Assembly (NCBI GenBank): GCA_964474825.1
Contig: CAYYWQ010000001.1
Location: forward strand, 1,033,606-1,097,605
Direction of reading: 5' to 3'
Length of the DNA: 64,000 nt
DNA from: an uncultured Candidatus Saccharibacteria bacterium
GTDB taxonomy: Bacteria; Patescibacteriota; Doudnabacteria; UBA920
How positions within the stretch are numbered: the stretch's first letter is position 1; each line of letters starts with the position of its first letter. The position numbers were made by a program, and so were the translations under genes. Below are positions 3,711 through 53,500 of the stretch, in pieces. A model generated the notes under the pieces. That model saw only the letters and a list, made by a program, of their open reading frames with translations. It ran no database searches and was not told the origin of the DNA.

Positions 3711-3720
3711 TCAAATAAAA

Positions 3721-3987: not shown

Positions 3988-3990
3988 TTT

Positions 3991-4329: not shown

Positions 4330-4339
4330 AAACCTTAAA

Positions 4340-7408: not shown

Positions 7409-7409
7409 T

Positions 7410-8988: not shown

Positions 8989-9019
8989 AAAAACACCCCT
9001 AGTCAGGGGTGTTTTTTTA
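8986..9019. terminator. Bidirectional intrinsic terminator (acacccct-agtc-aggggtgt + T7)
   Basis: A perfect GC-rich hairpin flanked by A- and T-runs sits between convergent genes. Confidence 0.5.
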
Positions 9020-10026: not shown

Positions 10027-10054
10027 AAATTATAACGGACAAAAGTGGTAAAAG

Positions 10055-10267
10055 TTACTGCAAAATAGACTGCAATGTTTGGTAGGATGTGCCAAGAATG
10101 GACAAAAAAATAAAAGCGTAGAACACGCTAATGCTAAAAGAGAGTAAAGTGGATTTGCCGTAGCGAATAAGGACGTAAACGCCAAAAATAGAAAACAGGC
10201 TCAGGATGCCAACAATAATATAGTATATGGAAGCAATAAGCAGGTTTAAGGGTTCCGAAAGATTCAT
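10055..10267 (-). CDS. Small two-TM membrane protein, hypothetical
   Basis: A 70-aa ORF that is hydrophobic throughout. It sits upstream of, and in the same orientation as, the bPH gene. Confidence 0.3.
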   Translation of the reverse strand: MNLSEPLNLLIASIYYIIVGILSLFSIFGVYVLIRYGKSTLLSFSISVFYAFIFLSILGTSYQTLQSILQ

Positions 10268-10271
10268 AAAA

Positions 10272-17767: not shown

Positions 17768-17992
17768 TGCGGGTCATAATCCAAAATTGTGGGTTGTGCA
17801 TTTTTTGGTCTTTAAAAGTCTTTAGGAGGATTTTTTAAGGACCCTGAACCAGTCAGCGAAAGCTTCCGGTTTAGGGCAAGGAAGAAATTATATTCCCTGG
17901 GCAGGTTTGGCTATTATTTTAGTACCCAATCCCGCCCAGGGAACAGTCGCGAAGTTCCTTGGTTGTTGTTATCTCACGTTCAAAGGATCCAG

Positions 17993-19030
17993 ATGAAAAA
18001 TTTACTGAAGTTCGGTTTGCTGTGGCTCACGTTCACCACAGTCGTTTTTTCACAGAACAACATCCAGCCAGCCGGGGGCAGTGATTCCCAGCCGAAGGGC
18101 TGCAACGGGACGGTAATGTATGTTACGGAGATCCAATCGCAGACAGTGTATCAAGTCTGCATTGAGAAGAACGGGACGCGTTTCCGTTCTGTTGGGTACT
18201 CCGGCTATTCTTATCGGCTGGCCCTGACGAATGACGAACAGGTCGCCGCCTACGAAGCGACCGGACGATTGTTCCGTTACTGGACGGGCGTCTTCCAGGG
18301 ACAGCACTATCTCCCGGGGAACGGCCGCATTACCCAGCTCGAAGGCAACACCATCTCGTTCGAGTATCCCAATGCCGCACCCCGCACTTTCGCCCTGTAC
18401 TACGACGGCGAATTTTCCACGTTCCGGACAGGTCCTATTACCGGCTTTCCGAAGCCTACCCAGAATTGCCTCAGAGCTGTCGACAACGGCGGCTACTGGT
18501 GTCTGATGCCAGACCGCAAGCTGTTGTTTTGGCAGCGTGGGTTCGCCGGGTTCAACACGCTGGAAGGGGCCCGGGTGGTTGCTGAGGGGGTGGGAGGGTT
18601 GGTCTCATTGGAGTTGGGTTCCGTGCTCTACACGACCGTTAACGAACTCAATTGCGGCGTACCTAGCTCCAGGCCCCAGCCTTGCAGGTTGCAGAAGCCG
18701 GCCCAGATAATTCGGGCAAGCTTCAACTACGGCAGCTTGCAGTTCGACCGCAAAACTTTGGGGTCGGGGTATATAAACGACAACCCCTACTCCGATGGAC
18801 TTGCGGTGTCGGACGGCAACCTGTACTACATTGACTACGACCCCTCCATCGGATCCCGCATCATTCAGTTCGACCTGAAGACCAACCGGTCCAGGGTTGT
18901 TCTGGACGGCAACCTGTTCAGGCTTCGCCGTGATGATGGTACGCGCATTATGCCGGGGTTTGGCGCACTTGTTGTTGCGCCGAATCTCAATCCGGCGATG
19001 GCCGCGCCTGCCCTTCCGACCGTTCGGTAG
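17993..19030 (+). CDS. Secreted hypothetical protein, GC-rich, possibly beta-propeller-like
   Basis: It has the signal peptide MKNLLKFGLLWLTFTTVVFSQNN; the ORF-track start at 17963 is upstream. G+C is much higher than in its neighbours. The blade-like segment GNLYYIDYDPSIGSRIIQFDLKTNRSRVV is weak evidence only. Confidence 0.5.
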   Translation: MKNLLKFGLLWLTFTTVVFSQNNIQPAGGSDSQPKGCNGTVMYVTEIQSQTVYQVCIEKNGTRFRSVGYSGYSYRLALTNDEQVAAYEATGRLFRYWTGVFQGQHYLPGNGRITQLEGNTISFEYPNAAPRTFALYYDGEFSTFRTGPITGFPKPTQNCLRAVDNGGYWCLMPDRKLLFWQRGFAGFNTLEGARVVAEGVGGLVSLELGSVLYTTVNELNCGVPSSRPQPCRLQKPAQIIRASFNYGSLQFDRKTLGSGYINDNPYSDGLAVSDGNLYYIDYDPSIGSRIIQFDLKTNRSRVVLDGNLFRLRRDDGTRIMPGFGALVVAPNLNPAMAAPALPTVR

Positions 19031-37299: not shown

Positions 37300-38251
37300 T
37301 TTCCTCCTCTTCCCCGTAAGCGCGGCCTGTTAAGTCCAAGTAGACGTCTTCCAGAGTTGCTGTTTTAACAGTAAAGCCGTAAAAAACAATGTTGTGGGTT
37401 TTTAATAAATTAACAACGGCGGAAATTTTGTCTAAGCTGGTAATTTCCAAAATAACTTTGGGAAAATCAGCGTGGACTTTTTTTATTTCCGGCATTTTAG
37501 AAAAAAGTTTTTCGTCCACCTGGTTGTCCGTAAAAAAAGAAATCTGCGTAGTGTCGGAAAGTCTGTCTATTAGTTTTTTTGGCTCGTCTATTTCCAGTAT
37601 TTGCCCTTGGTCCATAATAGCCACGCGGTGGCAAAGGTATTCCGCCTCTTCCATGTAATGAGTGGTAATAATAATTGTAATGCCGCGGGAATTTATTTTT
37701 TTAATTAACTGCCACATGTCCCTCCGGGCTTTTGGGTCCAGTCCTGTAGTGGGTTCGTCTAAAAACAAAATTTCCGGTTCGTTAACCAGGGAAGTGGCAA
37801 TTGTAAAGCGCTGTTTTTGCCCGCCGGAGAGGTTGGAAAACTCCTCGTGCTCTTTGTCTATTAAATTTACTAAGCCAAGCAGTTCTTGTTTGTCGGCCTT
37901 TAGGTTATAGAAAGAGGCAAAGAGGTCTAAGAGTTCCCATAAACTTAAATGGTGCAGGTATTGGCTGCTTTGAAGCTGAATGCCAATCCGTTTTTTTATT
38001 TCTTCAACCTGTTTTAGGTTATCGAACCCTAAAACTTGCACAGTTCCGGAAGTCTGCGGCTTTAATCCCTCTATAATCTCTAGTGTTGTGGTCTTTCCAG
38101 CTCCATTTGGCCCTAAAATCCCAAATATCTCCCCCTTCTCTACGTTAAAGCTTGTTCCCTTAACTGCCTCAAAAACCCCTTTGCCTTTTGGCAGGGGGTA
38201 AGTTTTTTTAAGATTTGTAACTTCTATAACTTTGTCCATTGTTAAATGCAT
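37292..38251 (-). CDS. ABC transporter ATP-binding protein
   Basis: It has the Walker A GILGPNGAGKTTTLEII, the signature LSGGQKQRFTIA, the Walker B ILFLDEPTTGLD and a C-terminal accessory domain. Confidence 0.85.
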   Translation of the reverse strand: MHLTMDKVIEVTNLKKTYPLPKGKGVFEAVKGTSFNVEKGEIFGILGPNGAGKTTTLEIIEGLKPQTSGTVQVLGFDNLKQVEEIKKRIGIQLQSSQYLHHLSLWELLDLFASFYNLKADKQELLGLVNLIDKEHEEFSNLSGGQKQRFTIATSLVNEPEILFLDEPTTGLDPKARRDMWQLIKKINSRGITIIITTHYMEEAEYLCHRVAIMDQGQILEIDEPKKLIDRLSDTTQISFFTDNQVDEKLFSKMPEIKKVHADFPKVILEITSLDKISAVVNLLKTHNIVFYGFTVKTATLEDVYLDLTGRAYGEEEENE

Positions 38252-38288
38252 TATAGCATTTTGTCTTTTTTATAGGTATAATAATTTT

Positions 38289-40601
38289 ATGAATACAGAA
38301 TTTAATCCCATTGAGAAATATGGGCCAACTACTTTACCGGAGTCAAAATCAGAGCATGAACTGCGGGAATCAAAGGCAGAAGTTTTGGAATTAGGGAAAA
38401 GATTTATTCAAGGACGGGATTGGAAAGCACTGGAAGATTTAGTTAGATCTTTGCCGGACAATGATTTTCTTGTCACTCAAACTACTTTGTTACAGGAGTT
38501 AAATGATGGTTTATTTGATGTTCAACTGAAGCCTGGACCTGCCAATAGATATTTTGAAGAAGGGGACGGTTGGGAAACTTTACGCTGCGCCACAGAAATT
38601 ATAAGGAAAATGGGAAATAATCCCAGCTCATCCAAATATTTGCATAAGGTTATGGAGATGGACAGGATTCCTAAGGTTGTTTTAAAAGAAGGGCAAGCTG
38701 CCATTACTAATGATATAAATGCAGGAGCTGATTTAGATATTGATGTTCGTTGGTTTTATTATAGGGCATTGACAGAGGCTTTTTTAAAATTTCCAGACGA
38801 TCGAGCCCTGCTCGCGGTAAAGCAAATTTTAAATAAGATTGACCAGCAGGTACTTGAAAATACCAGACATTATTACTACCCTGAGGGAAAAGATATAACA
38901 GGGAGTTTTGAAGAAACGCCACAGGAGTTGTTTGACTATCAGTTCAAGGCTGCGGAATCTAATATGCCCAGTGACTTAATTGCAGGCATATCCGCCGGTG
39001 ATATGGCAGTTGGCACTAAGTCTTTTATAATAAAAAAATTAGGGGGAGCCAAACAGCCGGAATCACTTCCTATGTTTTTAGAAGTGATAAAGCTCGAAGG
39101 CTCAGATGCCCCAATATATTTTCATCCTATATTGGAGGCTCTTAGGCAATTGGACCAAAATTTGGTGGCGGACAAGCTCTTAAATTTGGTTAAGAGCGGA
39201 AACCCATTTGAAAAAAGAAGCGCATTATGGCTGCTATATAGGTTGGAAATTGGACAAGTTGGGGTTTCTGAAGAAGGCGTACATTATTTGCATAAAGTTT
39301 ATGACGTGGGAAACTATAATAATCCTAATTATTATGTACAACGCTTAACTTCCGGTGGGCAGGTTGGTATTTTTTCCCAAGAGGGAAAATTTGAGAAATA
39401 TTTTAATTTGGAGGGATTGGGCAGTGAAGAACAGCGCATTAGAGCTAAATTGTTGGACATTACCTACGCTACTTTGTTTGGGCATCACGCTAAGGAGAAG
39501 CCGGAAGAACGCAAACAAAGAACAAAGTTATTAGAGGAGTTTCAGTTAAAATATTTTGAATTTTTACAACACGATTTTTTCAATGATCTTCCAGTAAAGT
39601 TTTCTGATTTAACTTTTCCGGAACAAGGGCAGTTTTTAAAATTTTATTCTGACTCTGAGGAGTCAGAAAGAGCGAGACTGAAAGATTATTGTAAGAAGTT
39701 TGGGCTAACTGGGTTTCGTTCATTAATGTCTTTGGATTATGATGGGGGTGTCGCCGCCAAGCTTTTAGACATGGCCGAAAGTTTGCCTCAGTCACGAATG
39801 CAGATGATTTTAGATAAATATGTGGCAATAGTTTCCGCAGCTGATACCGCGGAAATGGCACTTTGGGAAAACTTACCTCAATCCGCAAATGCTTCTCCAG
39901 ATTTAAAAGAACGGGTAAGAGAATTTATTATGGAAAAAGGTAGTAGATTTTTAAGGCATTTAGGGCTGGACGAATCTGAGGCATTTTCACACAAAGACAC
40001 AATCATGTATTTAAGTGGAATTCGTACAGAAGTAATGATTTATGCCGCTTTATTTAAAGAACTTTCTAAAATTAACAAACTTTCTATAACTGACATTAAA
40101 GACGCTAGGTTTGACATCGTCCCAGCTAAATTACTTTCTGAAGATGATAAAAAACAGATGTTGGAAATTTTTGCAAATAATAGAGACGAGAGCTATCCTT
40201 TAAAGTTGAGAGAAGCGACGTTAAGAAGTTTTGAGCAAACTTTACAAGCAGAAGGGCCGGTTTTTAGAGTGCTAAAGTACAAAGGAAGTATTGTGTCGTT
40301 TTTCCACGCTCAACCACAAGGAGAGGATGCTATTTATGTTGGATCTTTGAATTTGAGTCCTGACGCCCAAGACAGCTCTATTGCAGTTAGTATGGTAGTT
40401 GCGGCTTTGGAACAGGCCGGGACAGAAAAAAATATAACAGCTAAGGTTTGGTCTAAAAATGAAAAACTTTATAAATTTTATAAGCGCTATCTACATTTTC
40501 AAGATGATGGGGTAGAAGAGAATTATGAAGGAACGGGGGAAAATTATTACAAGCTAAAAAAACCAAAGCAGGAAGAATCTACTTTTGCAGTAGCGGCTTA
40601 A
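38289..40601 (+). CDS. Large hypothetical protein
   Basis: A long ORF with coding-like composition. The likely start is MNTEFNPIEK at 38289; the track start at 38232 overlaps the divergent ABC gene. I recognised no motif. Confidence 0.5.
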   Translation: MNTEFNPIEKYGPTTLPESKSEHELRESKAEVLELGKRFIQGRDWKALEDLVRSLPDNDFLVTQTTLLQELNDGLFDVQLKPGPANRYFEEGDGWETLRCATEIIRKMGNNPSSSKYLHKVMEMDRIPKVVLKEGQAAITNDINAGADLDIDVRWFYYRALTEAFLKFPDDRALLAVKQILNKIDQQVLENTRHYYYPEGKDITGSFEETPQELFDYQFKAAESNMPSDLIAGISAGDMAVGTKSFIIKKLGGAKQPESLPMFLEVIKLEGSDAPIYFHPILEALRQLDQNLVADKLLNLVKSGNPFEKRSALWLLYRLEIGQVGVSEEGVHYLHKVYDVGNYNNPNYYVQRLTSGGQVGIFSQEGKFEKYFNLEGLGSEEQRIRAKLLDITYATLFGHHAKEKPEERKQRTKLLEEFQLKYFEFLQHDFFNDLPVKFSDLTFPEQGQFLKFYSDSEESERARLKDYCKKFGLTGFRSLMSLDYDGGVAAKLLDMAESLPQSRMQMILDKYVAIVSAADTAEMALWENLPQSANASPDLKERVREFIMEKGSRFLRHLGLDESEAFSHKDTIMYLSGIRTEVMIYAALFKELSKINKLSITDIKDARFDIVPAKLLSEDDKKQMLEIFANNRDESYPLKLREATLRSFEQTLQAEGPVFRVLKYKGSIVSFFHAQPQGEDAIYVGSLNLSPDAQDSSIAVSMVVAALEQAGTEKNITAKVWSKNEKLYKFYKRYLHFQDDGVEENYEGTGENYYKLKKPKQEESTFAVAA

Positions 40602-41380
40602 ACAGCTTTTGCATTTTGCCACAGTGCTTCAAATACAGTTTTGTGCATTTTGTAAATTGCAGGGTGTTCTATGGTCATACTGACAATTTTTCCGGCTTCC
40701 ATGCTAATGTAAGAAATCTTGCCGTCGTAAATGTACATTATGGTGGAAAAGGCCGCGGGCGCCGGTATAACGCGAACCTGGGTAACGTTGGGGTTAAAAG
40801 TTTTAGCGTGCTGCCGCACAAAAGCGGAGTCCACCATAATAATTTTTTTCTTTATGCCTTTAGTTGTCCGCGCTTCCGTAAAGTTTTTGTTAAGTTCAGG
40901 AAATTGTTTATTTAGCGCCTCGCTGTCTATGTAAGAATAAATTTCCGTAGCTGAAGTTAAAGAATCCTCCACGACCTGTTGTGCTCCGTCCAATCCTTCG
41001 AAAAATTTAATTGTTGGTTTGGTTGCCGCGAGTTGATAAAGACTTCTAAGTCCCGGTAAGGTTTTGCCCAATTCTTCCTCCGCCGTTGTAATGGCGGATT
41101 TTTGTTTAGCTAAAAGAAGTTCCAGGTGCTCTGGATGTTTGGCTATAAATTTGGTGGTGGTTTTTGGCAAGTCTTGTTTTTCTACTAATCCTTTGGCTAC
41201 TAAGCTGTCCAGGTGGTAGTAAGCGTTGCCGCGCTTTAACTTGGTGTGGAATAAAATTGGCTTCATGCTTTGCGGACCCAAGTTTAAAAGCAGCTCGTAG
41301 ATTTGGGCTTCGTTTTTGTTGAGGCCTAGTTTTTCCAGGAGGGGGATATAAGGGGATTGTTGTATTTGATTATTATCCAT
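40598..41380 (-). CDS. TrmB-family transcriptional regulator (N-terminal wHTH)
   Basis: The N-terminus KNEAQIYELLLNLGPQSMKPILFHTKLKRGNAYYHLDSLVAKGLVEK matches the TrmB winged-helix pattern. Confidence 0.55.
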   Translation of the reverse strand: MDNNQIQQSPYIPLLEKLGLNKNEAQIYELLLNLGPQSMKPILFHTKLKRGNAYYHLDSLVAKGLVEKQDLPKTTTKFIAKHPEHLELLLAKQKSAITTAEEELGKTLPGLRSLYQLAATKPTIKFFEGLDGAQQVVEDSLTSATEIYSYIDSEALNKQFPELNKNFTEARTTKGIKKKIIMVDSAFVRQHAKTFNPNVTQVRVIPAPAAFSTIMYIYDGKISYISMEAGKIVSMTIEHPAIYKMHKTVFEALWQNAKAV

Positions 41381-41500
41381 ATACCCTTATTATGCGCCCT
41401 TTTTAGAATTTTGTCAAGTTAAAACTGACATTTTACTATTAATTTAAGCCATTTATTTAAAAGAAATATAGAGTTTATATATTATTACATCAGTATATTA

Positions 41501-41529
41501 TTGACATTTTGTCAAATTTAGACTACAAT
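41501..41529 (+). promoter_or_regulatory. Near-consensus sigma70 promoter (TTGACA-N17-TACAAT) pointing into the GC-rich island
   Basis: TTGACA is at 41501-41506, the spacer is 17 nt, and TACAAT is at 41524-41529. Confidence 0.5.
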
Positions 41530-41536
41530 GCGTAGT

Positions 41537-43240
41537 TAACATAAAAACAGCAAAAAGCACCTTTTACAATATATATGACTTTCTGAGGAGAGAGTCGGCA
41601 ATAGGCGCCGAAAAGCCTGGTAAATTAAGTCTTTTTGTCGCAATAAGCGGCTAATTGGTTATCTCTCCCAAAGAAATAGCTTGTTAGCCGCTTTTTTGGT
41701 AGAAGGGGATTTGGAGAAGAATACACCACATATTTCTTCTTCAAGTCTCTCTCTATAAAGAGGAGAGAGCCTGCGCTTAAAAAGAGCAGGTAAAAAATTC
41801 TTTTAAAACCATTTGTCTTGCTCAAAGGTTGGAGTAAGGATTAGAAACCCTAAAACAACCCCGCTCCATGCTCAGCATGGAGAAAGTAGACTTTAGCTAG
41901 AGTAGGTAAGTTACAGTGTTAAGCGCTTCGGCTTACAGGAAGCCGCGGCCCTGACCGCTTACCTATGGACCTAGCAATGAGTGCACCCTTCATAACCCAA
42001 AAGGTTGTGAAGGGAACAGTCATTGTTATAAGTAGAATATAGAATCTAGAAGATAGAATTTAGGAAATAGGTGCGTGCGGAAATTTTTATCGCCTGTGGT
42101 AAATATTTCTGCCCTCGCTACTACAGGAGTAGTGAGGTAGCACCTTAAAATTTTCAAATAAGATTTTAATTTTTGCTTAAGTTCGTCTTAAGCGTATTAG
42201 ATTTTGTCGGCAGCGTTGAGCAGCAAAGCTATGTCTTTGCTTTTTTAAGCTGCCGACAAGCCATGCATCTTTTTGGCGCATGGCAGCAGAAAAGGAGGCG
42301 GATATCGTGGAATACCCGCCGGGCAAGCAATAAAATTGCCGGGGTACAGCGTGAACCCTATCCCAAATTCGCTCGACAACTTCTGTGGCCTTTGCAGAAG
42401 ATCGTATTGATAAGGCAACCGGCAAGCAATTCTTGCCAAAGGAGGGTGGAAATGAAAACTCCACCTGGAAATAGGGGTAACTGGAAGAGGCCCAAAAAAC
42501 CAGCAACCGGAAACCTAGGGTATTAGTTGTCCCTAAGTGGAAGGTAAAAACCCGTCGCCGACAACTAAATGTGCTGCAGGAGTAAGGTAAGACTAGTAGT
42601 TATATTAGTAGGCTTGGATAAGGGCGTATGATCCTGGACTGAGTTAAAAGTATAATGAAGTGCTTATCTGAAACTGCACACATGGCAAGGAAGAGTCCTC
42701 CCTCCAGGAGGTGAGCGAGCTTGGGATAGTATCTCCGGGCCGCCTGCCTGGAGAAACTGCTCTATACCCCGAGGATCCGATGCTTCATGATTTGGGGTGA
42801 ACTTCCAGACGCCCAGGCACTTTGTTTTAGGAGGTGTGTTATGTTGAAACTTCCGTTTTAGCCCGGTCTCTGGATCCGGGCGAAGCCTGCCGCAAGGTAG
42901 GAAAACCAGCAACCAACCTATAGCAACAGATAGCTATGGGAAGGTTTACCCTAGGCCGTGTCTGTATGTTTTGTTAAGTAGTTTACGGAAAGGCGGATGA
43001 TCTGGAACGTAAACGAAAGGCGAGGCATGGTCGTGTGGTCCCGTGCGGCAACGGGACAAGGAAGAAAGTCTCTCCGCGTCTGTGGAGAGGATGGGCGAGC
43101 TCGGGACACAATTCCGCGGCTCGGCCTGTCCGAGTCCGCGGGAGAATGCCCAGAATCTTTCAGACGCCCGAGCGTTTTTGTTGTAAAAATCAAAACCGCC
43201 CGCGGCGCCGGATGATGCGCCAAGGGCAAAGGAGCTTGTC
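41537..43240 (+). other. About 1.7-kb non-coding, hairpin-dense leader / candidate large structured RNA preceding the Ubl-conjugation operon
   Basis: There is no ORF with credible composition. I saw at least ten perfect 5-10-bp hairpins by eye. Two 26-nt direct repeats lie at 42803-42828 and 43158-43183. G+C rises sharply from about 41830 onward. Confidence 0.3.
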
Positions 43241-44308
43241 ATGGTTGAGGTAAAATGGGGTGCAAATGCGGATCGTCCGTATTGGTTTCCCTTTAGTGAT
43301 CAGATAAAAGAATGGCTCTCTAATAACGAGAGCCTGCCAGACACTTTGTTGTACCTGCGCCCAACGTATAAGGAGGGGCAGCAGGAGCAAGTGGCTGGAC
43401 GTTTGGTTGTTGTGCTGGGTCGTGATGATTGGCCGAGCACAAAAGGGACCCTTGAGGCGGAAGGGAGCTTGAAGATTGACTTCATTCCGCAGGGTAATTT
43501 TCTTCGGATTTGGGGGCTACCAAATTGTCCCGACCGGAGAGACGGCGAGGAGGTGGTGAGGATTCTGAGTCGTCTGTTGCCCGAGGTTGCAAAGACTGAC
43601 CCACAAAAAAAACTTGCAATAATGGCAATGGTCTCTGAGGCCTATGTTAAAGAGTGCTCGAAGAGATTTGAAAAAACCCTTGAAGGAACCCGCAAGGCGA
43701 TCAAAGACGGTAACGCAGCCGTGGCCAAGCTCCAAGTGGAGCTCGTGAAAAAGATTCGCGAGACCCGAGGGGCTGAGCGCAAGCTTGAGCAAATGGAGTC
43801 CTCGCGCGAAGCGCAGACCGAAGGATACGCGCAGGAGTTTAATAAACTCCTGCAGGTCCCTAAAGTCCGTAGGGTGGAGGCAAAGGAGGGCAAAGTGATA
43901 GTTTACACCGACGTTCTTTTTTGTACGGATCCCCGGACGGGGATATGTCACGAGATTGGCGCGTTCAGGATTGAACTAGTTGCGGATATGGGGATCCCGT
44001 ACTGGTTTAACTTAACCCGTTCCGTTGACGGGTACAACAATAGAATGCAGGCACCACATATTTACTCGAACGGGCAGGCCTGTCTGGGTAACGCCGCGGA
44101 AATCTTCCCGGAACTCATAGGTAACTATGAGTTTGCGGCCGCAGCCATGGTGGCTATCCAGTTCGTGGAGTCGGTGAACACCGACGACACGGCTGGAAAA
44201 CACATTGACAAGTGGCCGGTGGCGAAGGAGCAACCGGTCAAAATCGCAACCGCAACAAAGGTGGCAAATTTAGTGCCGCCACAACCGTCTTGGAGGAGCA
44301 ATGGCTGA
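43241..44308 (+). CDS. E2-like (UBC-fold) ubiquitin-conjugating enzyme homolog with a roughly 200-aa N-terminal coiled-coil extension
   Basis: The C-terminal segment IPYWFNLTRSVDGYNNRMQAPHIYSNGQACLGNAAEIFPEL parallels the E2 core YPF.PP...F.T.IyHPNI..nG.ICLdiL, with the catalytic Cys in the xCL position. An SD (aaggag) precedes the ATG. Its stop overlaps the next gene. Confidence 0.5.
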   Translation: MVEVKWGANADRPYWFPFSDQIKEWLSNNESLPDTLLYLRPTYKEGQQEQVAGRLVVVLGRDDWPSTKGTLEAEGSLKIDFIPQGNFLRIWGLPNCPDRRDGEEVVRILSRLLPEVAKTDPQKKLAIMAMVSEAYVKECSKRFEKTLEGTRKAIKDGNAAVAKLQVELVKKIRETRGAERKLEQMESSREAQTEGYAQEFNKLLQVPKVRRVEAKEGKVIVYTDVLFCTDPRTGICHEIGAFRIELVADMGIPYWFNLTRSVDGYNNRMQAPHIYSNGQACLGNAAEIFPELIGNYEFAAAAMVAIQFVESVNTDDTAGKHIDKWPVAKEQPVKIATATKVANLVPPQPSWRSNG

Positions 44309-45035
44309 AAAGTTAAGGCGTGAGTGGGGCGGCGCCAAGAAGTTTGCGCCTCATGAATTTTCCTCGCGAGTAGAACTCGCGGGAGGCTTGCCTCGGGTTC
44401 TCGTGACCCGCGATGCGTACGAAGATATGTACTGCATCGTTGACGCGGTCGACAAAGAGGTAGGTTGGCTTGGCGCTGTCCAGCGTCTCGGAAATGATTT
44501 TCTGATCACGGAGGTTTTCCTCTTTGACCAGGAGACGCACGCGACAACGTGTGAGATCACGCCCGACGGCATGGCGGAGTTCGCCATGCAGCTCATGTCG
44601 TCCCGACCGGACGGCATGGAAGTAGCCAACTCAATCCGCTTCTGGGGGCACAGTCACGTGAATATGGGGACCAGCCCTTCGGGGCAGGACGAGACCCAAT
44701 TGCGTGAGCTGGCGGCTTCGTGTGGTGATTTTTTCGTTCGGGGCATTTTGAATAAGTCCGGACGGATGGAGTGGACCATCGTACTTGCTTCTGTTGGCGT
44801 CGTAATCCGCGACGCCGCGTGGGAGCTTTACGAACCCGCCGCCGATGCCCGCCGCCGACAGCGGTGGGAGGCGGAAATCGCAACTAAAGTCCGGGAAAAG
44901 ACCTACCCGCAACCGACCTTCGGGTCGGAACGTCGGTGGTCATCAACGATTATTCCCGGACCGGTCGCCTCCGCGGTCCCGCTCTCCAAGCGGGCACAGC
45001 GGCGGCTAGAGAAAGCGGGCAAAAATGGCCATTGA
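44301..45035 (+). CDS. JAB/JAMM (MPN+) metalloprotease-family protein, a putative Ubl-processing/deconjugating peptidase
   Basis: It has a complete JAMM motif: E (LITEVF) ... HSHVNMGTSPSGQD, which is HxHx7Sx2D. It overlaps both neighbours, indicating translational coupling. Confidence 0.65.
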   Translation: MAEKLRREWGGAKKFAPHEFSSRVELAGGLPRVLVTRDAYEDMYCIVDAVDKEVGWLGAVQRLGNDFLITEVFLFDQETHATTCEITPDGMAEFAMQLMSSRPDGMEVANSIRFWGHSHVNMGTSPSGQDETQLRELAASCGDFFVRGILNKSGRMEWTIVLASVGVVIRDAAWELYEPAADARRRQRWEAEIATKVREKTYPQPTFGSERRWSSTIIPGPVASAVPLSKRAQRRLEKAGKNGH

Positions 45036-45732
45036 TCCGCTTCGGCATCTAAGCGTCTTTTCGCCGCATGCCTTTGGGCAGCGGCGGGTAGACGTAATTG
45101 GCTGCGGGGCCACAGGGTCCCGTATTGTGCTTTCTTTGGCGAAGCTCGGCGTGGAGAACATTCACGTGTGGGACTTCGACGTCGTCGAAGAGCACAACAT
45201 TCCGAACCAAGCGTTCTGGCAGGAAATGCACGTCGTGCACGATTCTGCCAAACCGAAGCTGGCGAAGGTCTCGGCCATGGCCGAGATCGTCGAGATCGCC
45301 ACGGGGACCAAAATCACCGTCCATCAGGAGAAGGTGGACGGCACCCAAAGCTTGGGTGAAGTAGTTTTTCTTCTCACCGACACCATGTTTTCGAGAAAGG
45401 AGATTTGGGAAGGAGCCTTGAAGTTCAAGCTCCGGACCGAACTCTTAATTGAGACCCGCATGGGTGCGGACTCGGGCCGGGTGTATAGCCTGGACCCGAA
45501 TAAGCTCGGCCAAATCAAAGCATACGAGGAGACTCTGTGTTCTGACGAAGAGGCCGAGGTTAGCGCTTGCGGCGCAAGTGTGTCGGTGGGGTCAACCGCG
45601 GAAGTGATTTCCGGACTCGCGGTCTGGCAAATGATTCGATGGTTTTCCATTGAGCAGGGAGGCGACGATGAGCTCGACAACGAGATCATTTTTGGCCTCC
45701 GCCCAATGCTGACCATCAGCAGGAAGTTTTGA
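45025..45732 (+). CDS. ThiF/MoeB-type E1-like activating enzyme
   Basis: It has the Rossmann/ATP motif VDVIGCGATGSRIVLSLAKLGVENIHVWDFDVVEEHNIPNQ, with Gly-rich GxGxxG and acidic DxD, and a downstream Cys-containing block ACGASVSVGSTAEVISGLAVW, which is the E1 catalytic-Cys region. Confidence 0.7.
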   Translation: MAIDPLRHLSVFSPHAFGQRRVDVIGCGATGSRIVLSLAKLGVENIHVWDFDVVEEHNIPNQAFWQEMHVVHDSAKPKLAKVSAMAEIVEIATGTKITVHQEKVDGTQSLGEVVFLLTDTMFSRKEIWEGALKFKLRTELLIETRMGADSGRVYSLDPNKLGQIKAYEETLCSDEEAEVSACGASVSVGSTAEVISGLAVWQMIRWFSIEQGGDDELDNEIIFGLRPMLTISRKF

Positions 45733-45733
45733 T

Positions 45734-46051
45734 ATGGGCTGGCTGGCGGGCCGTAACGAGATAATTCAACTTCGTCTCCAACCACCAAAGCCAACGGCCT
45801 ATGTTAATTTTGGTTCAGGTATTGAGTTCACTGCCGACTTCATTGTTGGTATGACACTTCGCAACCTGATCCAGTTTTTGCAGCAGAACTGTAGCTATCG
45901 TTCTATTCACGGCGATGAAATCCCGTGGTTGCATGACTTCCTGCGAACCGGCGACCTTAAGAATTTCCCGGCGGATTTGGACTATGTTATCCAGCCGGGT
46001 GACAAAATTGTTCTGGACTTAACGAAGTTGTTGAGTCCGGTAAGTAAGTAA
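45734..46051 (+). CDS. Small beta-grasp (ubiquitin-like/ThiS-like) protein without a terminal Gly-Gly
   Basis: It has the C-terminal beta-grasp-like DYVIQPGDKIVLDL pattern. Its start is 1 nt after the E1 stop. It ends ...LLSPVSK, with no GG. Confidence 0.4.
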   Translation: MGWLAGRNEIIQLRLQPPKPTAYVNFGSGIEFTADFIVGMTLRNLIQFLQQNCSYRSIHGDEIPWLHDFLRTGDLKNFPADLDYVIQPGDKIVLDLTKLLSPVSK

Positions 46052-46183
46052 ATGTAGTATAGAGGCCGGCATTGCCGCCCGTCGAATGTAGACGTTAAAA
46101 AATATGGGTCCCAAAGGGATTAAATTTAAAACCCATCCGCAGTTTGTAGAGCATTGGCAAACAGCGAAGACAGGAGTAAAACA

Positions 46184-46966
46184 ATGCGGAGTTTCATTAA
46201 CGTCAGAATCGGCCGGCTCCCCGGTCGGATTTCGGAAATTGTGCTTAATGGCGACCGCACGGTCGCTACCGCGTTGATGACCGCCGGCCTGGACAGCGCT
46301 GGCTACGATATCCGGGTGCAGGGTGCACCCGCGAGCATGACAACCGGACTCAACGAGGGGGACATTGTCCTCCTCGTGAAGAAGATCAAGGGGAACGGCG
46401 GGATTGAGGGCGCAACCTTCGTTCACGTCGGCCGCGTCCCCGGACCCGGTCTTGTCCAGTTTGCACTGGATGAGCCCACGGTCTTCATGGCTTTGTCTGC
46501 CGCTGGTCTCAATCTGGGGCCGGATGAGGTGGTTTACCGCAACGACCAGCTTTCTTCCATCGGGGAACCGGTGGAAGACGGCGACAAGATCGTCGTCCGG
46601 CATCCGATGCCGGCGATGGTCGCGGCTTCGCCGGAATTGCCGTCCGGCTTGCACCAGACTGCGCCGGTAGTTTCTGCCACGTTCGATTTCTCGGCCGTGG
46701 TCGGCACCGACCCGGCCCAGCTCTGCTCCAGCGCGGAACGGCTGACCCGCGAAGCGGAGGAGCTCGAGGCGGGAGCTCGCGCCGCGCTCGCCAGCGCGGC
46801 CGAGAAGAAGGTTGCGGCCTCGGCCCATTGGGCCAAAGCCGCGGCTATCGAGACCGCCAACGAGGCGTTGGCAAATGCCAGCGCCCAGCTCGAAACCCTT
46901 GGGGTTATTCGCCCCAAGGGCGAAGGACGGTGGACTGATATCCGCCGCCTCTTCGGCCTCTCGTAG
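46184..46966 (+). CDS. Tandem beta-grasp (multi-ubiquitin-like) protein with an internal KGNGG and a C-terminal Ala-rich coiled coil
   Basis: Module 1 is INVRIGRLPGRISEIVLNGDRTVATALMTAGL...EGDIVLLVKKIKGNGG, with a diglycine at the module end. Module 2 is ...GPDEVVYRNDQLSSIGEPVEDGDKIVVRHP. The SD (aggag) favours the ATG at 46184 over the track start at 46154. Confidence 0.5.
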   Translation: MRSFINVRIGRLPGRISEIVLNGDRTVATALMTAGLDSAGYDIRVQGAPASMTTGLNEGDIVLLVKKIKGNGGIEGATFVHVGRVPGPGLVQFALDEPTVFMALSAAGLNLGPDEVVYRNDQLSSIGEPVEDGDKIVVRHPMPAMVAASPELPSGLHQTAPVVSATFDFSAVVGTDPAQLCSSAERLTREAEELEAGARAALASAAEKKVAASAHWAKAAAIETANEALANASAQLETLGVIRPKGEGRWTDIRRLFGLS

Positions 46967-47752: not shown

Positions 47753-47918
47753 TTCAATCACCTGCCGGAATGACGGCTTAAGAGTAGTTGGGGAGCTGTA
47801 TGGTTTAGCCAATTAATTTTGGTACAAATCTCTCTCCTCAAGCGGCTCCTTAATGCTTTTAAACTTTTCATTTCGGCAGTTGGGTGGAGGAAAAATAAAA
47901 AAAACAAAGGTGAACAAA

Positions 47919-48500
47919 ATGTTTAGTTGGTTGTTAAGATGGTTGAACTTGGACAAACCAACGGCCACAGGTGCGGCCGTTGAACAAGTGACGACAGAAG
48001 TTGCGGTCGTCGAAAAACCAAAAACGTCAGAGCCCCCGCCTGCCCCGCGGGAGGAGGCGGACCGGGACACGCATGTACTTAATTCCCAGTATCGCAGCAT
48101 TCGGCCGTTTGTGCCGGCGGCTGAAGTTCCCAAGGCCGTTGTGGCGGCGGATCTTGTGGAGTTTGAGGCTATTCCCGCTGGAGACGGGAAAACGGCGCCC
48201 GGGGATTGCCGACCGACGCGATTCCCCAATGGGGCGATCCTTGAGGTTGTCCAGAAAAGGGAGGGGGTAGTAATGGTGCGGTGCTATGTGCCGTACCACT
48301 ACACCAACAGGAGGTGGTGGCGGCCAGAAAAATTGATGGGTCAAATTTTTTTGATGCCAACAGAGAGATTTTGTTGGCTGGCCCAGCAGAAGTACCCGCC
48401 GGGCCACTGGGCTTTGCGGGACTACCGGGACGAGGTGGCCCGTCGGCAAGCTCAGGGCTTGCTGGATTACATCAACCTGCCCCCGCCTGGGGGCAAATAA
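47919..48500 (+). CDS. Hypothetical protein on the island
   Basis: The start MFSWLLRWL is preceded by an SD (aaggtg). The track start at 47853 has no SD. It is Pro/Ala-rich N-terminally, and I could not identify a domain. Confidence 0.4.
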   Translation: MFSWLLRWLNLDKPTATGAAVEQVTTEVAVVEKPKTSEPPPAPREEADRDTHVLNSQYRSIRPFVPAAEVPKAVVAADLVEFEAIPAGDGKTAPGDCRPTRFPNGAILEVVQKREGVVMVRCYVPYHYTNRRWWRPEKLMGQIFLMPTERFCWLAQQKYPPGHWALRDYRDEVARRQAQGLLDYINLPPPGGK

Positions 48501-48517: not shown

Positions 48518-48565
48518 GGCCGAAAGCACGCACTTTCGCTTTCGGCCACTTCTTTCAGATTACGA
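48518..48565 (+). repeat. Copy 1 of a roughly 48-nt direct repeat (GC hairpin ggccgaaagc/gctttcggcc + ctttcagattacga), followed by a TTGACA promoter-like site at 48657
   Basis: It is more than 90 percent identical to 50052-50099. Both copies are followed about 80-100 nt later by ctgaaag and a TTGACA -35-like hexamer. Confidence 0.5.
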
Positions 48566-48789
48566 CTCATGTCGCGGTCTGAAAGTTGTCGAGGTTATAG
48601 TTTGGAACATCTGCTTTGTGAGCGCCCTTGCTTGGTAGATGTTCCGCATTTTGGCCTTGACAATAACAGTAGTTTGTGATAAATTAAGTAGTTAAAACTT
48701 AATATTTCTCAAGGGCGCATTTTGCGCCCTTTTTTTGTTTGCCTTTTTCTTTTAGCCCGCAGTGATGGCGGGTTGGAAGAAGGAGGAAT

Positions 48790-49104
48790 ATGGATAAGAG
48801 TGTTTTTGGATTTGTGTCCGCCTTTTTGGTGGACTCGGGATACAACTTGGAATGGAAAACCCAGGAAGGGCGGACATTCGAGGTTTCCGGTGACCCCAGG
48901 TTTCCGGAAATGTATTACGAGGTTTTTGATTCGGCCAAAAAGGTGATCCGTAAGCAGGAAGCGGATTTTGCTTTTGAGGCCGCTTCAGGAGATTTTTTTC
49001 TCTTTCTTTTCTCCGGCGAGGAGAAGAAAGGAGAGTCTTTGTCCAGGGAGCAATTTTTGGACCAGGTGCAGAATCGGTTCCCGGCATTTGTCCGGATCCG
49101 ATAG
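48790..49104 (+). CDS. Hypothetical small protein
   Basis: A strong SD (gaaggagg) lies 6 nt upstream of the ATG. The 104-aa protein is acidic. Confidence 0.45.
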   Translation: MDKSVFGFVSAFLVDSGYNLEWKTQEGRTFEVSGDPRFPEMYYEVFDSAKKVIRKQEADFAFEAASGDFFLFLFSGEEKKGESLSREQFLDQVQNRFPAFVRIR

Positions 49105-49142: not shown

Positions 49143-50027
49143 TTGAGAAAAGAAGGAGAGGTTTTGACTGTGCCGCGAAAAAAAGGGCCGCAGGCTAAAC
49201 AGAAACAGCGGGAGGCCGACGAACGGCGCAAAAAAGGTACGGCCAAACCGGCTAATGAGTCGGCAAGGGCGTATCTTAACAACAAGGAAATGGCGATGCC
49301 GCTCGACAAGCTGCATCAATATCTTCGTGACAAGAAGGGGTTTAATGTTTCCAGGGCGACCGCCTGGCGCGCCAAAAGGACGGGGTATTTTTATCCGCAA
49401 CACGTGCCGACGTTTGGCGCTAAGCGGATTAAATTGACCCTGGATGAGAGGTCTGCTTCGGTGGATTTTTTGGTCAAGCGGTTTGGCTTTACCCGTCAAA
49501 CCGCCCGGGAAGCCAAGCGGCGTGGGTGGTTTACGGTCGACGTGAACACACGCGGCCGTATTAGGATTCCGGCAGACCGTTATGTTCCGCCGGCGGAGCT
49601 CAAACCTGAGCTGGTGGTGGAAAGGGTAGACCTCACTCAGGAGGAGAGGCAGGCTTTTCCGGATTTTTTGGCAAAGCGGTTCGGGATTTCCCGTCGTACC
49701 GCCGCGGTAGCCAAGGAGCGCGGCTGGTTCAAAGTTTTGCCCGCAATGAGGGGGAAGCTGCGAATTCCCAATGACCGCAAAATGCCGAGCATTTTCCCGG
49801 GGAAAAAGGTGGAGCTGACCACCTCGGAAATGCAGACCAGCCTGGATTTCTTGGTTAATCGGTTCGGCATTCACCGCACTACTGCCGCGGTAGCCAAGGA
49901 GCGGGGGTTCTTTATTGTCATGTCGCAACATATGGGCAAGACAAGGATTCCCGTGAATCGAGTGGTGGGCATGGATGAGACGCGGTATTTCCGTCGCGGC
50001 CGGCCCCCAAAGCCTGGAAAAAAATAA
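49143..50027 (+). CDS. Protein with four tandem excisionase/AlpA-type HTH (HTH_17-like) repeats
   Basis: There are four repeats of about 35 aa: FLVKRFGFTRQTAREAKRRGWFTV...GRIRIP, FLAKRFGISRRTAAVAKERGWFKV...GKLRIP, FLVNRFGIHRTTAAVAKERGFFIV...GKTRIP, and a diverged first copy YLRDKKGFNVSRATAWRAKRTGYF. The real start may be the GTG at about 49170, after an SD (aaggagagg). Confidence 0.5.
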   Translation: MRKEGEVLTVPRKKGPQAKQKQREADERRKKGTAKPANESARAYLNNKEMAMPLDKLHQYLRDKKGFNVSRATAWRAKRTGYFYPQHVPTFGAKRIKLTLDERSASVDFLVKRFGFTRQTAREAKRRGWFTVDVNTRGRIRIPADRYVPPAELKPELVVERVDLTQEERQAFPDFLAKRFGISRRTAAVAKERGWFKVLPAMRGKLRIPNDRKMPSIFPGKKVELTTSEMQTSLDFLVNRFGIHRTTAAVAKERGFFIVMSQHMGKTRIPVNRVVGMDETRYFRRGRPPKPGKK

Positions 50028-50051: not shown

Positions 50052-50099
50052 GGCCGAGAGCACGCACTTTCGCTTTCGGCCATTTCTTTTAGAATACGA
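50052..50099 (+). repeat. Copy 2 of the roughly 48-nt direct repeat, followed by a TTGACA-N16-TATATT promoter (50132-50159)
   Basis: The match to 48518-48565 is seen directly in the sequence. The promoter hexamers are near consensus. Confidence 0.5.
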
Positions 50100-50399
50100 T
50101 AAGTATCGTGACCTGAAAGAAGTTCTAGTACTTGACAAACCCCCAATTCGTGCTATATTAGGTATACACATTGCACGATTTGGGGATGATATGTGCGCTT
50201 CCGATTCACCCGCTTTAGGCGTAAATATCGGATAAAATAATAAAACCTTAGACCGAAAACATTAAGTTTTCGGTAGGGTTAGTTTGTCGCCAGTTTTTAT
50301 TTTAATGGTAAAAAATCTGATAAACTCTTAATTTTAATAATACCTTTTATTTAAGCCATAAAAGGTATATTTTTAGTGTCTCTGCAACTTTCTTTTGTT

Positions 50400-50491
50400 G
50401 TCATCCCGAGCGACTGCTGAGTGCATCCGAAGCAGGAGTCGAGGGATCCCTCCACTCGCCCTCGGATGCACTCGGGCTCGGTCGGGATGAC
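50400..50491. repeat. Roughly 92-bp GC-rich imperfect palindrome centred on GGATCC, immediately upstream of rpoB (MITE/REP-like element or attenuator)
   Basis: The arms gtcatcccga...gagtgcatccga...gaggga and tccctc...tcggatgcactc...tcgggatgac are reverse complements apart from an internal indel. G+C is far above the surrounding AT-rich intergenic DNA. Confidence 0.5.
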
Positions 50492-50550
50492 ATCTGTAAA
50501 AATTTTTAATTTTTGTTTGTCAATTAATCAACTAATTAAAGGATATATAA

Positions 50551-53500
50551 ATGCCCGCCAAAGCATCAAACGTCGCCTTAGCTAAGCCTGAGCGCAAAAT
50601 CGTCCGCAAGTTTTTTACCAAAGACCACGAAACCAAGTTGCTACCCAACCTTATAGAGGTGCAGCTCGACTCTTATAAATGGTTTTTGGAAAAAGGCCTT
50701 AAAGAACTTTTAGGGGAAGTTACTCCTATTAGAGACTTTACTGGCAAGAATTTAGAATTGTTCTTTGGCGATTACTTTTTTGACAAAACCAAGTACGACG
50801 AATTCCTTTCCCGCGAACGCAACACCACTTTTGAAGCTCCTTTGTACGTGAGCGCTAAGCTTATTAACAAAGTTACGGGCAAAACGAAAACTCAAGACGT
50901 TTACTTTGGCGATTTTCCTTTAATGACCCCGCGCGGAACTTTTATAATCAACGGTGTAGAACGCGTTGTAGTTAACCAGCTTATAAAATCCCCGGGTGTA
51001 TTTTTTACTTCGGAAAATGTCCGCGGAAAAGTTTTGTACGGCGCGAAAATTATTCCTAACCGCGGCGCATGGCTGGAACTAGACACTGACAGCAGCGGCG
51101 TTATTGGCGTAAAAATAGACCGCAAACGCAGAATTCCTATTACAGCTTTAATCCGCGTGTTTGGTTTAACTTCTAACGAAGACATTTTAGCCGCTTTTAA
51201 AGATGTAGACACAGACCCGGACGTAAAATACATTCAATCCACTTTAGAAAAAGACGCTTCCACTAACGCAGACGAAGGTTTTAAAGAAGTTTATAAAAGA
51301 ATCCGCCCGGGAGACTTAGCCACAGTAGACAACGCTAAATCCCTCATCAGTGGTATGTTCTTTAACCTAGAAAGATACGATCTTTCCCCGGTTGGCCGCT
51401 ACAAATTTAACCAACGCTTGCATATAGACGAAAGCCGCGACAACGCACTGCTTCTTTTGGAAGATTTGCTCGCGGTTGTTAAAGAAGTTATTCGTTTAAA
51501 CAACACCCAAGAAACTCCGGACGACATTGACCACTTAGCCAACCGCCGCGTGCGCGCCGTGGGTGAATTAATCCAAACTCGCTTCCGCGTAGGTCTTGCT
51601 CGTATGGCCCGTATTGCCAAAGACAGAATGAGCTTGGCGGATTTAGAAAGCGTAACTCCGGCTCAGCTTATTCATGTCCGTCCTATTGTGGCCACTATGC
51701 AGGAATTCTTTTCCTCTTCCCAGTTGTCACAATTTATGGACCAAACAAATCCTTTGGCCGAACTGGAACACAAAAGAAGGCTCAGTGCCATGGGCCCTGG
51801 TGGTCTTAGCCGTGAACGCGCTGGGTTTGAAGTTCGTGACGTGCACCATAGCCATTACGGCAGGCTTTGCCCAATCACCACTCCTGAAGGACCAAACATT
51901 GGTTTGGTTGCCCACTTGGCTACTTATGCCAGAGTAAATGATTTTGGTTTTATTGAAACTCCTTACCGAAAAGTTAAAAAGGTCGCCAAGAACGACGGCA
52001 AAGACGCGGTAGGGGAAATTGCTTCGTTCGATATTAAAGACGAAAAAGGTAATGTTATTGTAGCTGCCGGAGCGGAAATTTCTGCTACCGCTGCCAAAGA
52101 AATTGCCAAGAACGAACAACTTTTGGAAGTTCCGGTTAAAGCCCGTGTTCTGTTTTCCGAAGTAATGTATTTGGATGCTTTTGAAGAAGAAGAGCTTATT
52201 ATTGGTGCGGCCGGTATTGCCTTTGACGAAAAAGGTTACTTTATAGAGCAGCGTGCTTCTGTAAGACTGCACACAGTGCCAAGTATTGCCGCCACTTCCG
52301 AAATAGACTGCATAGACGTGTCCCCAAAACAAATTATTTCCGTAACCACCTCCCTCATTCCATTCTTGGAACACGATGATGCTAACCGTGCGTTAATGGG
52401 CAGCAACATGCAACGTCAGGCCGTGTCCTGCATTAAGCCGGACGCGCCTTTAGTGGGTACTGGTATGGAAGCCAAAGCCGCGCGCGACAGCGGCACGGTT
52501 GTAGTTTCCGAAGAAGACGGGGAAGTTGTTTCTGTAACCGGCGACAAGATTGTAGTTGTTGGCGACAAAGGCAAAAAGAAAGAGTATCACTTATTAAAAT
52601 TTTTACGTACCAACTCAGCCACGGCTGTTAACCAAATCCCTAGAGTAAACAAAGGCCAAAAAGTTAAGAAAGGCGATTTGCTCGCAGACGGCGCCTCCAC
52701 CGAAGACGGAGAATTGGCTTTGGGACAAAACGTTTTAGTGGCTTTCCTTTCCTGGGAAGGTGGTAACTATGAAGATGCTATTTTGGTTTCTGAGCGCGTA
52801 GTTCAGCAGGACCGCTACAGCTCCATTCATATAGATGACTTTAAAATAGACGTGCGCGACACAAAACTCGGGCCCGAACAAGTTACCCGAGACATTCCTA
52901 ATGTTGGTGAAGAAAAGTTAAAAGACTTAGACGAAAACGGAGTCATCCGCATTGGCGCGCAAATTAAATCCGGTGACATTTTAGTCGGTAAAATTACGCC
53001 AAAAGGTGAGACCGATTTAACCGCAGAAGAAAAACTGCTTCGCGTAATTTTTGGTGAAAAATCCAGGGACGTAAAAGACACTTCCCTTACGCTTCCTCAC
53101 GGTGAATACGGAAAAGTTGTTAACATCCGCGAATTTACCAGGCAGGCCGGGGACAAATTACCTTCCGGTGTTATTCGAAGCATTCAGGTTTCTGTTGCTG
53201 TGCTTAGGAAAATCCAGGTAGGGGATAAAATGGCCGGACGCCACGGTAACAAAGGTGTTATTTCAAAAATTATTCCAGTTGAAGACTTGCCATTCATGAA
53301 AGACGGCCGCGCCGTGGACATTGTCTTAAACCCGCTTGGTGTTGTGTCCCGTATGAACCTGGGACAAATTTTGGAAACCCATTTGGGTATGGCCGCTTAT
53401 AAACTCGGCTACCATGTGGCTACTCCCGTTTTAGACGGAGTCACAGAAGGCGAAATTAAATCGGAACTCAATCGTGCCGGCGTGCCGGAAGACGGTAAAG

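Follow-up and report, generated by a model that had tools for sequence, protein, structure and literature searches.

A four-unit tandem helix-turn-helix protein, probably DNA-binding, from a GC-rich island of a Patescibacteria chromosome

The DNA analysed here, which we call the window, is a stretch of 64,000 nucleotides (nt) of contig CAYYWQ010000001.1. It is chromosomal DNA of a Patescibacteria (candidate phyla radiation, CPR) bacterium. Its rpoB is 61-65% identical to Patescibacteria genomes, housekeeping genes surround the locus, and the contig measures 1.21 Mb. The last gene of a foreign GC-rich island, which lies just upstream of rpoB, encodes a protein with four tandem helix-turn-helix (HTH) units (the four-HTH protein). 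It belongs to a rare and previously undescribed family from uncultured bacteria. With moderate confidence, we read this protein as one that binds double-stranded DNA and regulates or targets foreign DNA.

The original prediction proposed four tandem HTH repeats in this protein. The array is borne out, with three clear repeats (repeats 2 to 4) and one divergent N-terminal repeat (repeat 1). Amino acid (aa) numbering follows the 294-aa open reading frame (ORF), and the limits of all units are given in Table 1. The 35-aa pattern first quoted for the repeats is exact at aa 109-143, 175-209 and 236-270, but the fourth unit diverges from it and has no 'RIP'. The clear units score 103-107 bits apiece against the repeat hidden Markov model (HMM) and 108-140 in pairwise BLOSUM62 local alignments. 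Their mutual identity is 49-57%. At the DNA level, three copies start 198 and 183 nt apart; therefore, the true period is 61-66 aa, and 35 aa is the length of the shared core. Repeat 1 lacks the C-terminal 'RIP' wing and reaches only 11.9 bits with the repeat HMM. It corresponds to a repeat type conserved across the family (alignment A5), and it is a high-confidence HTH in the AlphaFold model.

The conserved scaffold of the units is 'TA..AK.RG'. The variable positions fall at the start and middle of the putative recognition helix, a distribution that would fit unit-specific sub-sites. The protein is very basic, with an isoelectric point (pI) of 11.2, 67 lysines and arginines among 287 aa, and basic tails at both termini. 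Judged by eye, the C-terminal tail looks AT-hook-like; the relative P0015 has a comparable 'PKRGRPKK'. The motif 'MPSIFPGKK' between repeats 3 and 4 is kept in P0006, P0007 and P0008.

Two starts were considered for the gene. The longest ORF begins with TTG 49143. The second TTG, at 49164, has an AAGGAG Shine-Dalgarno sequence 8 nt upstream and gives a 287-aa product (P0001). Therefore, 49164-50027 was taken as the coding sequence, and it is the more likely one. In two read-set assemblies whose sequence is identical to that of the window, the public gene calls likewise begin at TTG 49164. We compared the gene with its homologue in the metagenomic locus L086 (P0007, 51% identical). The nucleotide differences are 111, 88 and 170 at codon positions 1, 2 and 3, and 68 of the 131 identical residues are encoded by different codons. 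Third codon positions are also the most divergent when the internal repeats are compared with each other. Because the changes relative to the homologue concentrate at third positions, selection acts on this reading frame, and the substitution pattern indicates long-term purifying selection. The third-position excess and the synonymous codon differences refute the idea that the repeats are an artefact of a wrong frame. The 418-aa antisense ORF that spans the entire gene is itself an artefact, which mirrors the GC-rich coding strand opposite, and no gene.

AlphaFold models were used to examine the fold. The single-sequence model is poor, with a predicted local distance difference test score (pLDDT) of 49.7, but it shows helix-helix-helix-hairpin in each unit. 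When the 32-sequence core alignment was supplied, pLDDT for the two-unit core (aa 42-152) was 93.2, and the predicted template modelling score was 0.60. In each modelled core unit, a short strand leads into a short helix, followed by two longer helices that form the HTH and by a closing strand. The unit has the tri-helical core, with the recognition helix after a tight turn, of the HTH superfamily. The four winged units first expected are in part confirmed: the two-unit core is modelled as HTH at high confidence, but repeat 1 is wingless.

Sequence comparisons point in the same general direction. The Pfam scan of the window protein gave only sub-threshold generic HTH matches (HTH_11, HTH_Tnp_4, HTH_36). 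When 42 type-2 units of the family were scanned singly, the matches were HTH_23 (12 units), HTH_11 (11), DeoR (7) and HTH_28 (7). The best PDB sequence-profile matches are ArgR and RpoN domains and are non-significant. PDB profile searches with the repeat, the core or the long-form alignment returned chance nanobody-framework matches, weak HTH matches, or none. According to the model, the units are HTH domains. The four-HTH protein is almost certainly a nucleic-acid binder, because of the modelled core with pLDDT 93, the sub-threshold matches to many HTH Pfam families and the pI of 11.2.

The family is poorly represented in databases. The curated libraries (Pfam, NCBIfam, PDB) have no entry describing the protein or its family, and PADLOC and PHROGs scans of the window protein gave no meaningful match. 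A word-indexed search of 5.8 billion proteins with the whole protein returned itself and one weak relative, P0002, an HNH endonuclease with two motif copies at its C-terminus. The same kind of search with the 32-sequence core alignment had no match. The repeat-profile search recovered P0006, a contig-edge fragment. One metagenome scan found a single locus, which encodes a 125-aa two-repeat protein. Another metagenome scan found no relatives, and the genome representatives scanned for the repeat gave no match. Likewise, GenBank phages, GenBank plasmids and IMG/VR viral contigs had no family match. The HMMER repeat profile was more productive. Among 1.84 billion cluster representatives, 83 proteins passed E<=1e-3 and 21 of these also passed E<=1e-10, with family E values down to 1e-46.

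The conserved core of the family is a type-1 unit and a type-2 unit joined by a short linker (alignment A5). Type 1 has the consensus '..G(Y/F).(V/I)SR.TA.RAK..G(W/Y)F' and no wing; in A5 it reads '..G(Y/F).(V/I)SR.TAWRAKK.GWF'. The type-2 consensus is 'LT.EE......L...FGI...TA..AK.RG(W/F)F.V...N...V.IP..R', or 'LT.EE..LS...L...FGIS..TA..AK.RGWF.V...N...V.IP..R' in another form. By the alignments that define the family (A5 and A6), the window protein is a member, with one type-1 and three type-2 units. We consider the type-1 and type-2 pair to be the family's ancestral unit.

The units occur in five architectures. In the first (A, the long form), an N-terminal helical domain of about 170-200 aa precedes two to four units, as in P0009 and P0007 (417 aa, four units). 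The second (B) comprises two-unit proteins of about 130 aa, whose tail is basic and rich in proline. The third (C) combines an HNH nuclease with the units (P0002, P0012, P0022, P0043, P0050). In the fourth (D), one or two units are followed by regions of extracytoplasmic function (ECF) sigma factors (P0059, P0071). Sigma70_r2 matches P0059 with 24.2 bits (cut-off 24), and Sigma70_r4 is sub-threshold in P0071 (23.2 bits; cut-off 24.1). The last (E) has four units alone and includes the window protein and P0008 (249 aa, basic tail).

The closest comparison is with P0007: the two proteins share 51% identity across 251 aa, and their four repeats follow one order. At 55-62% identity, orthologous units are no less alike than paralogous ones (49-57%); on this similarity, the order of the four units is old and conserved. 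The window protein corresponds to a long form without the N-terminal domain, because its N-terminal tail aligns with the family linker: the end of the tail, 'GTAKPANESARAYLNNKEMAMPLDKL', matches the stretch that joins that domain to repeat 1 in the long forms. The N-terminal domain of the long forms has no PDB or Pfam relative.

Covalent chains of several HTH units are already known as a kind (Myb, paired domains, AraC, NUMOD arrays), and a chain of four is unusual among bacteria. The hit list of the HMMER repeat profile also contained unrelated proteins with much longer arrays: P0057 has about 15 tandem HTH units, P0062 has 7, and P0074 has a GIY-YIG nuclease and 6 units. Covalent HTH arrays thus recur in metagenomic proteins.

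The original prediction likened the repeats to the HTH of excisionases, AlpA and HTH_17, and proposed a role similar to recombination directionality factors. Excisionase-type proteins (lambda Xis, AlpA, TorI, BldC, RdfS) likewise have small basic HTH units with a beta wing. They form head-to-tail arrays on direct repeats and bend DNA strongly (PMC5859096, PMC11963761, PMC7498355), and the covalent four-unit chain would act like such an array. However, the resemblance did not hold in the comparisons. The window protein does not match HTH_17 (PF12728) even at E<=10. Only 2 of the 42 type-2 units match it (best E 0.066), and P0059 reaches 18.5 bits with a cut-off of 27. With hhalign, the unit profile gave probabilities of 0.15% (lambda Xis), 12% (BldC) and 6% (lambda Cro), figures that are indicative only. 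The modelled unit has three helices and an N-terminal strand, unlike the two-helix HTH on a three-stranded sheet of MerR/Xis. The profile check suggested earlier gave weak generic HTH matches, but no support for HTH_17, MerR-like or Xis relatives. Membership in the excisionase/HTH_17 family is not supported by significant sequence, profile or fold matches.

The functional side of this proposal can be weighed in the same way. It would consist of four fused Xis/MerR-type units that bend att-like DNA, for example the 68-nt flanking repeats, to direct excision of a 1.5-kb module or of the whole island. Several features agree with it. The motif 'RGWF.V....G..RIP' resembles the end of HTH_17 domains, and the N-terminus of the IS607 transposase is weakly matched in NCBIfam (E 0.006, aa 111-147). 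One source labels the fragment P0006 as 'predicted site-specific integrase-resolvase'. The 68-nt direct repeats bracket the 104-aa ORF and the four-HTH gene, and head-to-tail arrays on direct repeats are known for BldC and Xis (PMC5859096) and RdfS (PMC11963761). On the other hand, the units form one covalent chain and not an assembly of separate monomers, and no partner recombinase accompanies them: Pfam, PADLOC, PHROGs and NCBIfam found no integrase, serine recombinase or transposase among the island ORFs. The one repeat that flanks the gene is a hairpin element behaving like plus-strand RNA, and the scans of GenBank phages and plasmids and of IMG/VR gave no family match. A recombination directionality role is unlikely, and the complete account with att-like repeats and excision is very unlikely.

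The domain fusions suggest a different use of the units. Relatives carry the module alone, after an N-terminal domain, or fused to HNH or ECF-sigma regions, which suggests a portable unit for DNA targeting. In P0059, P0071 and similar proteins, the repeat lies N-terminal to sigma region 2 and/or 4, as in ECF sigma factors with DNA-binding extensions. The module probably aids promoter choice in these relatives. The window protein has no sigma region; at most, it could mark these sites or compete for them.

The fusions to nucleases recall the NUMOD1 modules of I-TevI-like GIY-YIG and HNH enzymes, which are also short tandem HTH DNA-targeting parts beside a nuclease (PMC1564403). The four-HTH protein might then be a nuclease-free homing-endonuclease module, whose NUMOD-like units occupy or protect the site cut by its HNH-repeat relatives (immunity or competition). 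At least five family members have an HNH domain beside the same repeats, in a NUMOD1-type layout. Homing endonucleases of the GIY-YIG and HNH types typically have HTH units in tandem (PMC1564403), and P0074 combines GIY-YIG with six units. However, the four-HTH protein has no nuclease domain, the window holds no nuclease gene of the family, and most family members are not fused to a nuclease. NUMOD1 is outside the 25 Pfam families matched by the largest numbers of repeats, and the pair of wingless and winged units is specific to the family described here. At the locus we see neither an intron or intein nor a free-standing homing context. We regard this explanation as distinctly unlikely.

A further reading takes the pair as a new portable DNA-address module of CPR mobile elements. 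The number of units (2, 3 or 4) would set the length of the site read, and the module would steer sigma factors, HNH nucleases and the N-terminal effector. The window protein would be a dominant-negative or immunity form. It would occupy the address of its effector-carrying relatives; the island, and with it an integration hot spot that lies between rpoB and the trmB-like gene, would thereby be silenced or protected. This proposal is unlikely.

Our preferred reading is the DNA-binding regulator or targeting protein. Its single chain has one wingless type-1 unit and then three winged type-2 units, between basic tails. The recognition helix '(S/T/H)RxTAxxAKxRG' of each unit would enter one major groove, and the short conserved linkers would set the register of the units. 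The chain may in this way read a long composite site of about 40-50 bp. It would be the covalent counterpart of the head-to-tail arrays formed by small winged-helix proteins on direct repeats. The protein most likely serves as a repressor or occupancy factor for the acquired GC-rich island, or for a related mobile element. Such a role is the simplest one to propose because the protein has DNA-binding parts only. The contexts of the relatives are mostly short contigs of unknown genes, and so we infer the regulatory role from the architecture.

Long asymmetric sites are likewise read by successive HTH units in Myb R1R2R3, the paired domain, AraC/MarA and the N-termini of mariner transposases. 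'Paired box' and Mos1 are among the best fold matches, which are non-significant. The window protein has no detectable homology to these proteins, and it adds basic tails and the AT-hook-like motif.

Several results weigh against our preferred reading. Foldseek found nothing significant in the PDB; its best E value was 2.7, with lambda Cro first and a template modelling (TM) score of about 0.4. The fold search in BFVD gave a best E of 0.55, for a 'paired box' protein, which is also non-significant. As there is no significant structural neighbour, the HTH assignment is based on the topology of the AlphaFold model and on weak sequence matches. Lambda Cro was rejected as a fold relative (E>2.7, TM about 0.4, hhalign 6%). 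In the intergenic DNA of the island, scans of k-mers and of direct, inverted and tandem repeats showed no operator, iteron-like or regularly spaced repeats, nor the direct-repeat arrays, roughly a helical turn apart, that a recombination directionality factor would use, although these scans would miss degenerate sites. Apart from the family gene itself, the contexts of the relatives share nothing with the island. Finally, the gene could be a truncated remnant with little function left, and the extreme basicity and the adjacent structured RNAs are compatible with RNA binding. These last two points lead to alternatives of their own.

If the gene is decaying, only the 3' part of a long-form gene would be left, its N-terminal domain having been lost during island assembly, and this remnant would now be functionless. 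The protein begins exactly at the inter-domain linker of the family and has a TTG start codon. The island itself is a mosaic in which several promoters and terminators occur. Nevertheless, the frame is intact, with a good Shine-Dalgarno sequence, and all four domains retain the conserved family residues. P0008 is an independent stand-alone homologue with four repeats, the sequence is identical in two read sets, and the substitutions follow the pattern of long-term purifying selection. Decay is quite improbable on this evidence.

The RNA alternative depends on the flanking elements. The repeats noticed on both sides of the gene are real, but longer than first described (68 nt). The two copies are 82% identical, where chance would give zero matches, and their ends are sharp on both sides. 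On the plus strand each copy forms a pair of adjacent hairpins, at -38.6 and -33.7 kcal/mol (z -7.1 and -6.2). Two substitutions in copy 2 retain G-U pairing on the plus strand and disrupt the minus strand, which folds at -24.9 kcal/mol (z -2.5). Both copies precede a strong promoter-like site with an extended -10. They look like RNA 3'-end or terminator-like elements, or cassette boundaries, more than operators. The suggestion that they are the binding sites of the protein found no support, given the plus-strand hairpins after stop codons and the G-U-preserving changes in copy 2.

An RNA-binding protein could instead recognise these tandem hairpins, or the structured leaders nearby, and affect termination, stability or translation. 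The pI of 11.2, the strongly structured RNA elements that flank the gene (z -6 to -10) and the preservation of pairing on the plus strand only would agree with it. However, the fusions to sigma regions and HNH nucleases point to double-stranded DNA, and the 68-nt element is absent from the other family loci. HTH domains are overwhelmingly DNA readers. RNA as the ligand is extremely improbable to us.

The layout upstream of the gene looks like control at the RNA level. The segment 48586-48795 forms a chain of hairpins (z -10.7), and the 3' arm of a 78-nt hairpin holds the -35 of the promoter-like site. The Shine-Dalgarno sequence of the 104-aa ORF sits within a 19-bp stem (48742-48786).

If our inference holds, the protein is a compact natural chain of four HTH readers and the first described member of an uncurated family. 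This family occurs in bacteria about which little is known, and in the mobile DNA of these bacteria. The sigma and HNH fusions suggest a reusable DNA-targeting module, whose specificity could be mapped unit by unit and possibly re-used. For annotation, 'hypothetical protein' would become 'multi-HTH DNA-binding protein of a foreign island', and the unsupported excisionase label would be dropped. Beyond annotation the significance is modest, as acquired islands commonly carry regulators of the HTH kind.

The island is distinguished by its composition. GC content is 0.52-0.60 across about 42.5-50.1 kb, with a host background of about 0.42. It is bounded by a trmB-like gene (40598-41380) and rpoB (50551), and no tRNA was found in it. 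A 19-nt pair (41434/50341) was considered as island attachment sites and then rejected, since its match probably arose by chance in AT-rich sequence. Two ORFs with no assigned function lie between a pair of genes that look ubiquitin-like by eye and the four-HTH gene.

The ubiquitin-like pair belongs to an operon (43241-46966) that resembles the Bil-type bacterial ubiquitination-like defence systems (PMC10557695); PADLOC made no system call. The 270-aa protein (46154-46966) has two apparent beta-grasp-like segments, 'GDIVLLVKKIKGNGG' and then 'GDKIVVRHP'. The internal GG behind the first segment would suit a ubiquitin-like moiety freed by the JAB peptidase. With respect to the defence or anti-defence role also considered in the original prediction, family members were not seen together with E1, E2 or JAB genes at the loci of the relatives.

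These loci are short metagenomic contigs with GC of 0.43-0.54, and the family gene is the only gene they have in common. L086 offers the longest context. Here, P0007 follows a non-coding region of about 950 nt and heads a row of genes (2498-10347) for a 260-aa protein, a DEAD/ResIII helicase, a MoxR-type AAA ATPase and a VWA protein, with HicAB nearby. The row may be a mobile element or a defence locus, and the contig of P0009 repeats its opening.

In the window, a long plus-strand gene is overlapped by 4 nt by the convergent trmB-like gene (38232-41380), and the same arrangement is found beside the P0009 element. The match considers gene lengths, orientation and the TrmB Pfam match only. It is a hint of shared host synteny or of a common insertion region at this gene pair.

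Table 1. Positions of the four-HTH gene, its parts and the neighbouring features in the window.
Feature	Position	Strand	Remarks
Longest four-HTH ORF	49143-50027	+	TTG 49143, 294 aa
Probable coding sequence of the four-HTH protein	49164-50027	+	287 aa; AAGGAG Shine-Dalgarno, public gene calls, purifying selection
Basic N-terminal tail, aa 1-44	49143-49274	+	net charge +8, probably disordered
Repeat 1, aa 45-96, type-1 'wingless' HTH	49275-49430	+	'KGFNVSRATAWRAKRTGYF'; AlphaFold helices 54-64 and 71-80
Repeat 2, aa 97-149, type-2 HTH	49431-49589	+	C-terminal 'WFTV...RIRIP' strand/wing
Repeat 3, aa 163-215, type-2 HTH	49629-49787	+	alignment, DNA repeats, HMM
Linker, repeats 3 to 4	49788-49811	+	makes 'MPSIFPGKK' with M214 and P215 of repeat 3
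Repeat 4, aa 224-276, type-2 HTH	49812-49970	+	alignment, DNA repeats, HMM
Basic C-terminal tail	49971-50024	+	RRGRPPKPGKK, AT-hook-like by eye
Antisense ORF, 418 aa	48915-50171	-	spans the entire four-HTH gene; artefact
68-nt repeat, copy 1	48518-48585	+	two tandem hairpins, 18 nt past the stop of ORF 47853-48500
68-nt repeat, copy 2	50052-50119	+	25 nt past the four-HTH stop; 12 nt before the -35 facing rpoB
Promoter-like site	48657-48685	+	TTGACA-17-TAAATT with TG; precedes ORF 48790-49104 and the four-HTH gene
Intrinsic-terminator-like hairpin and T-run	48711-48731	+	between the promoter-like site 48657-48685 and the genes
ORF, 104 aa	48790-49104	+	no assigned function; directly upstream of the four-HTH gene, probably co-transcribed
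Island 355-aa protein	within 43241-46966		E2-like 'HIYSNGQACLG', by eye
Island JAB-like protein	within 43241-46966		'HSHVN...SPSGQD', weak Pfam match
Island ThiF/E1 protein	within 43241-46966		Pfam 3e-17; also matches CBASS (cyclic-oligonucleotide-based anti-phage signalling system) E1-E2 models
105-aa ORF, then 270-aa ORF	within 43241-46966		downstream of the E2/JAB/E1 genes; ubiquitin-like by eye

A second GC-rich patch (0.57) lies at 17963-19030, between a pilB-like ATPase gene and polA. It encodes a probable secreted protein of 355 aa, for which no family match was found. A link to the 355-aa protein of the island was checked and rejected, as the two are unrelated.

Two further regions near the island borders have predicted RNA structure. 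The rpoB leader (50160-50555, about 390 nt) lies behind a strong promoter-like site at 50132-50159 and is strongly structured (z -8.4), with a long hairpin at about 50397-50500. It belongs to no Rfam family, and rplJ/rplL are not upstream of rpoB, unlike in many bacteria. An Rfam scan of the window was empty at gathering thresholds, and relaxing it to E<=1 across 41.3-50.6 kb added nothing of use. At the other border, 1.8 kb (41381-43240) have no ORFs and contain a promoter-like TTGACA-17-TACAAT at 41502-41530. The plus strand of 41500-42400, which also has no Rfam match, folds beyond shuffled sequences (z -5 to -9, 200-nt windows) and beyond the minus strand. It is a candidate for a large non-coding RNA or for the long leader of the island.

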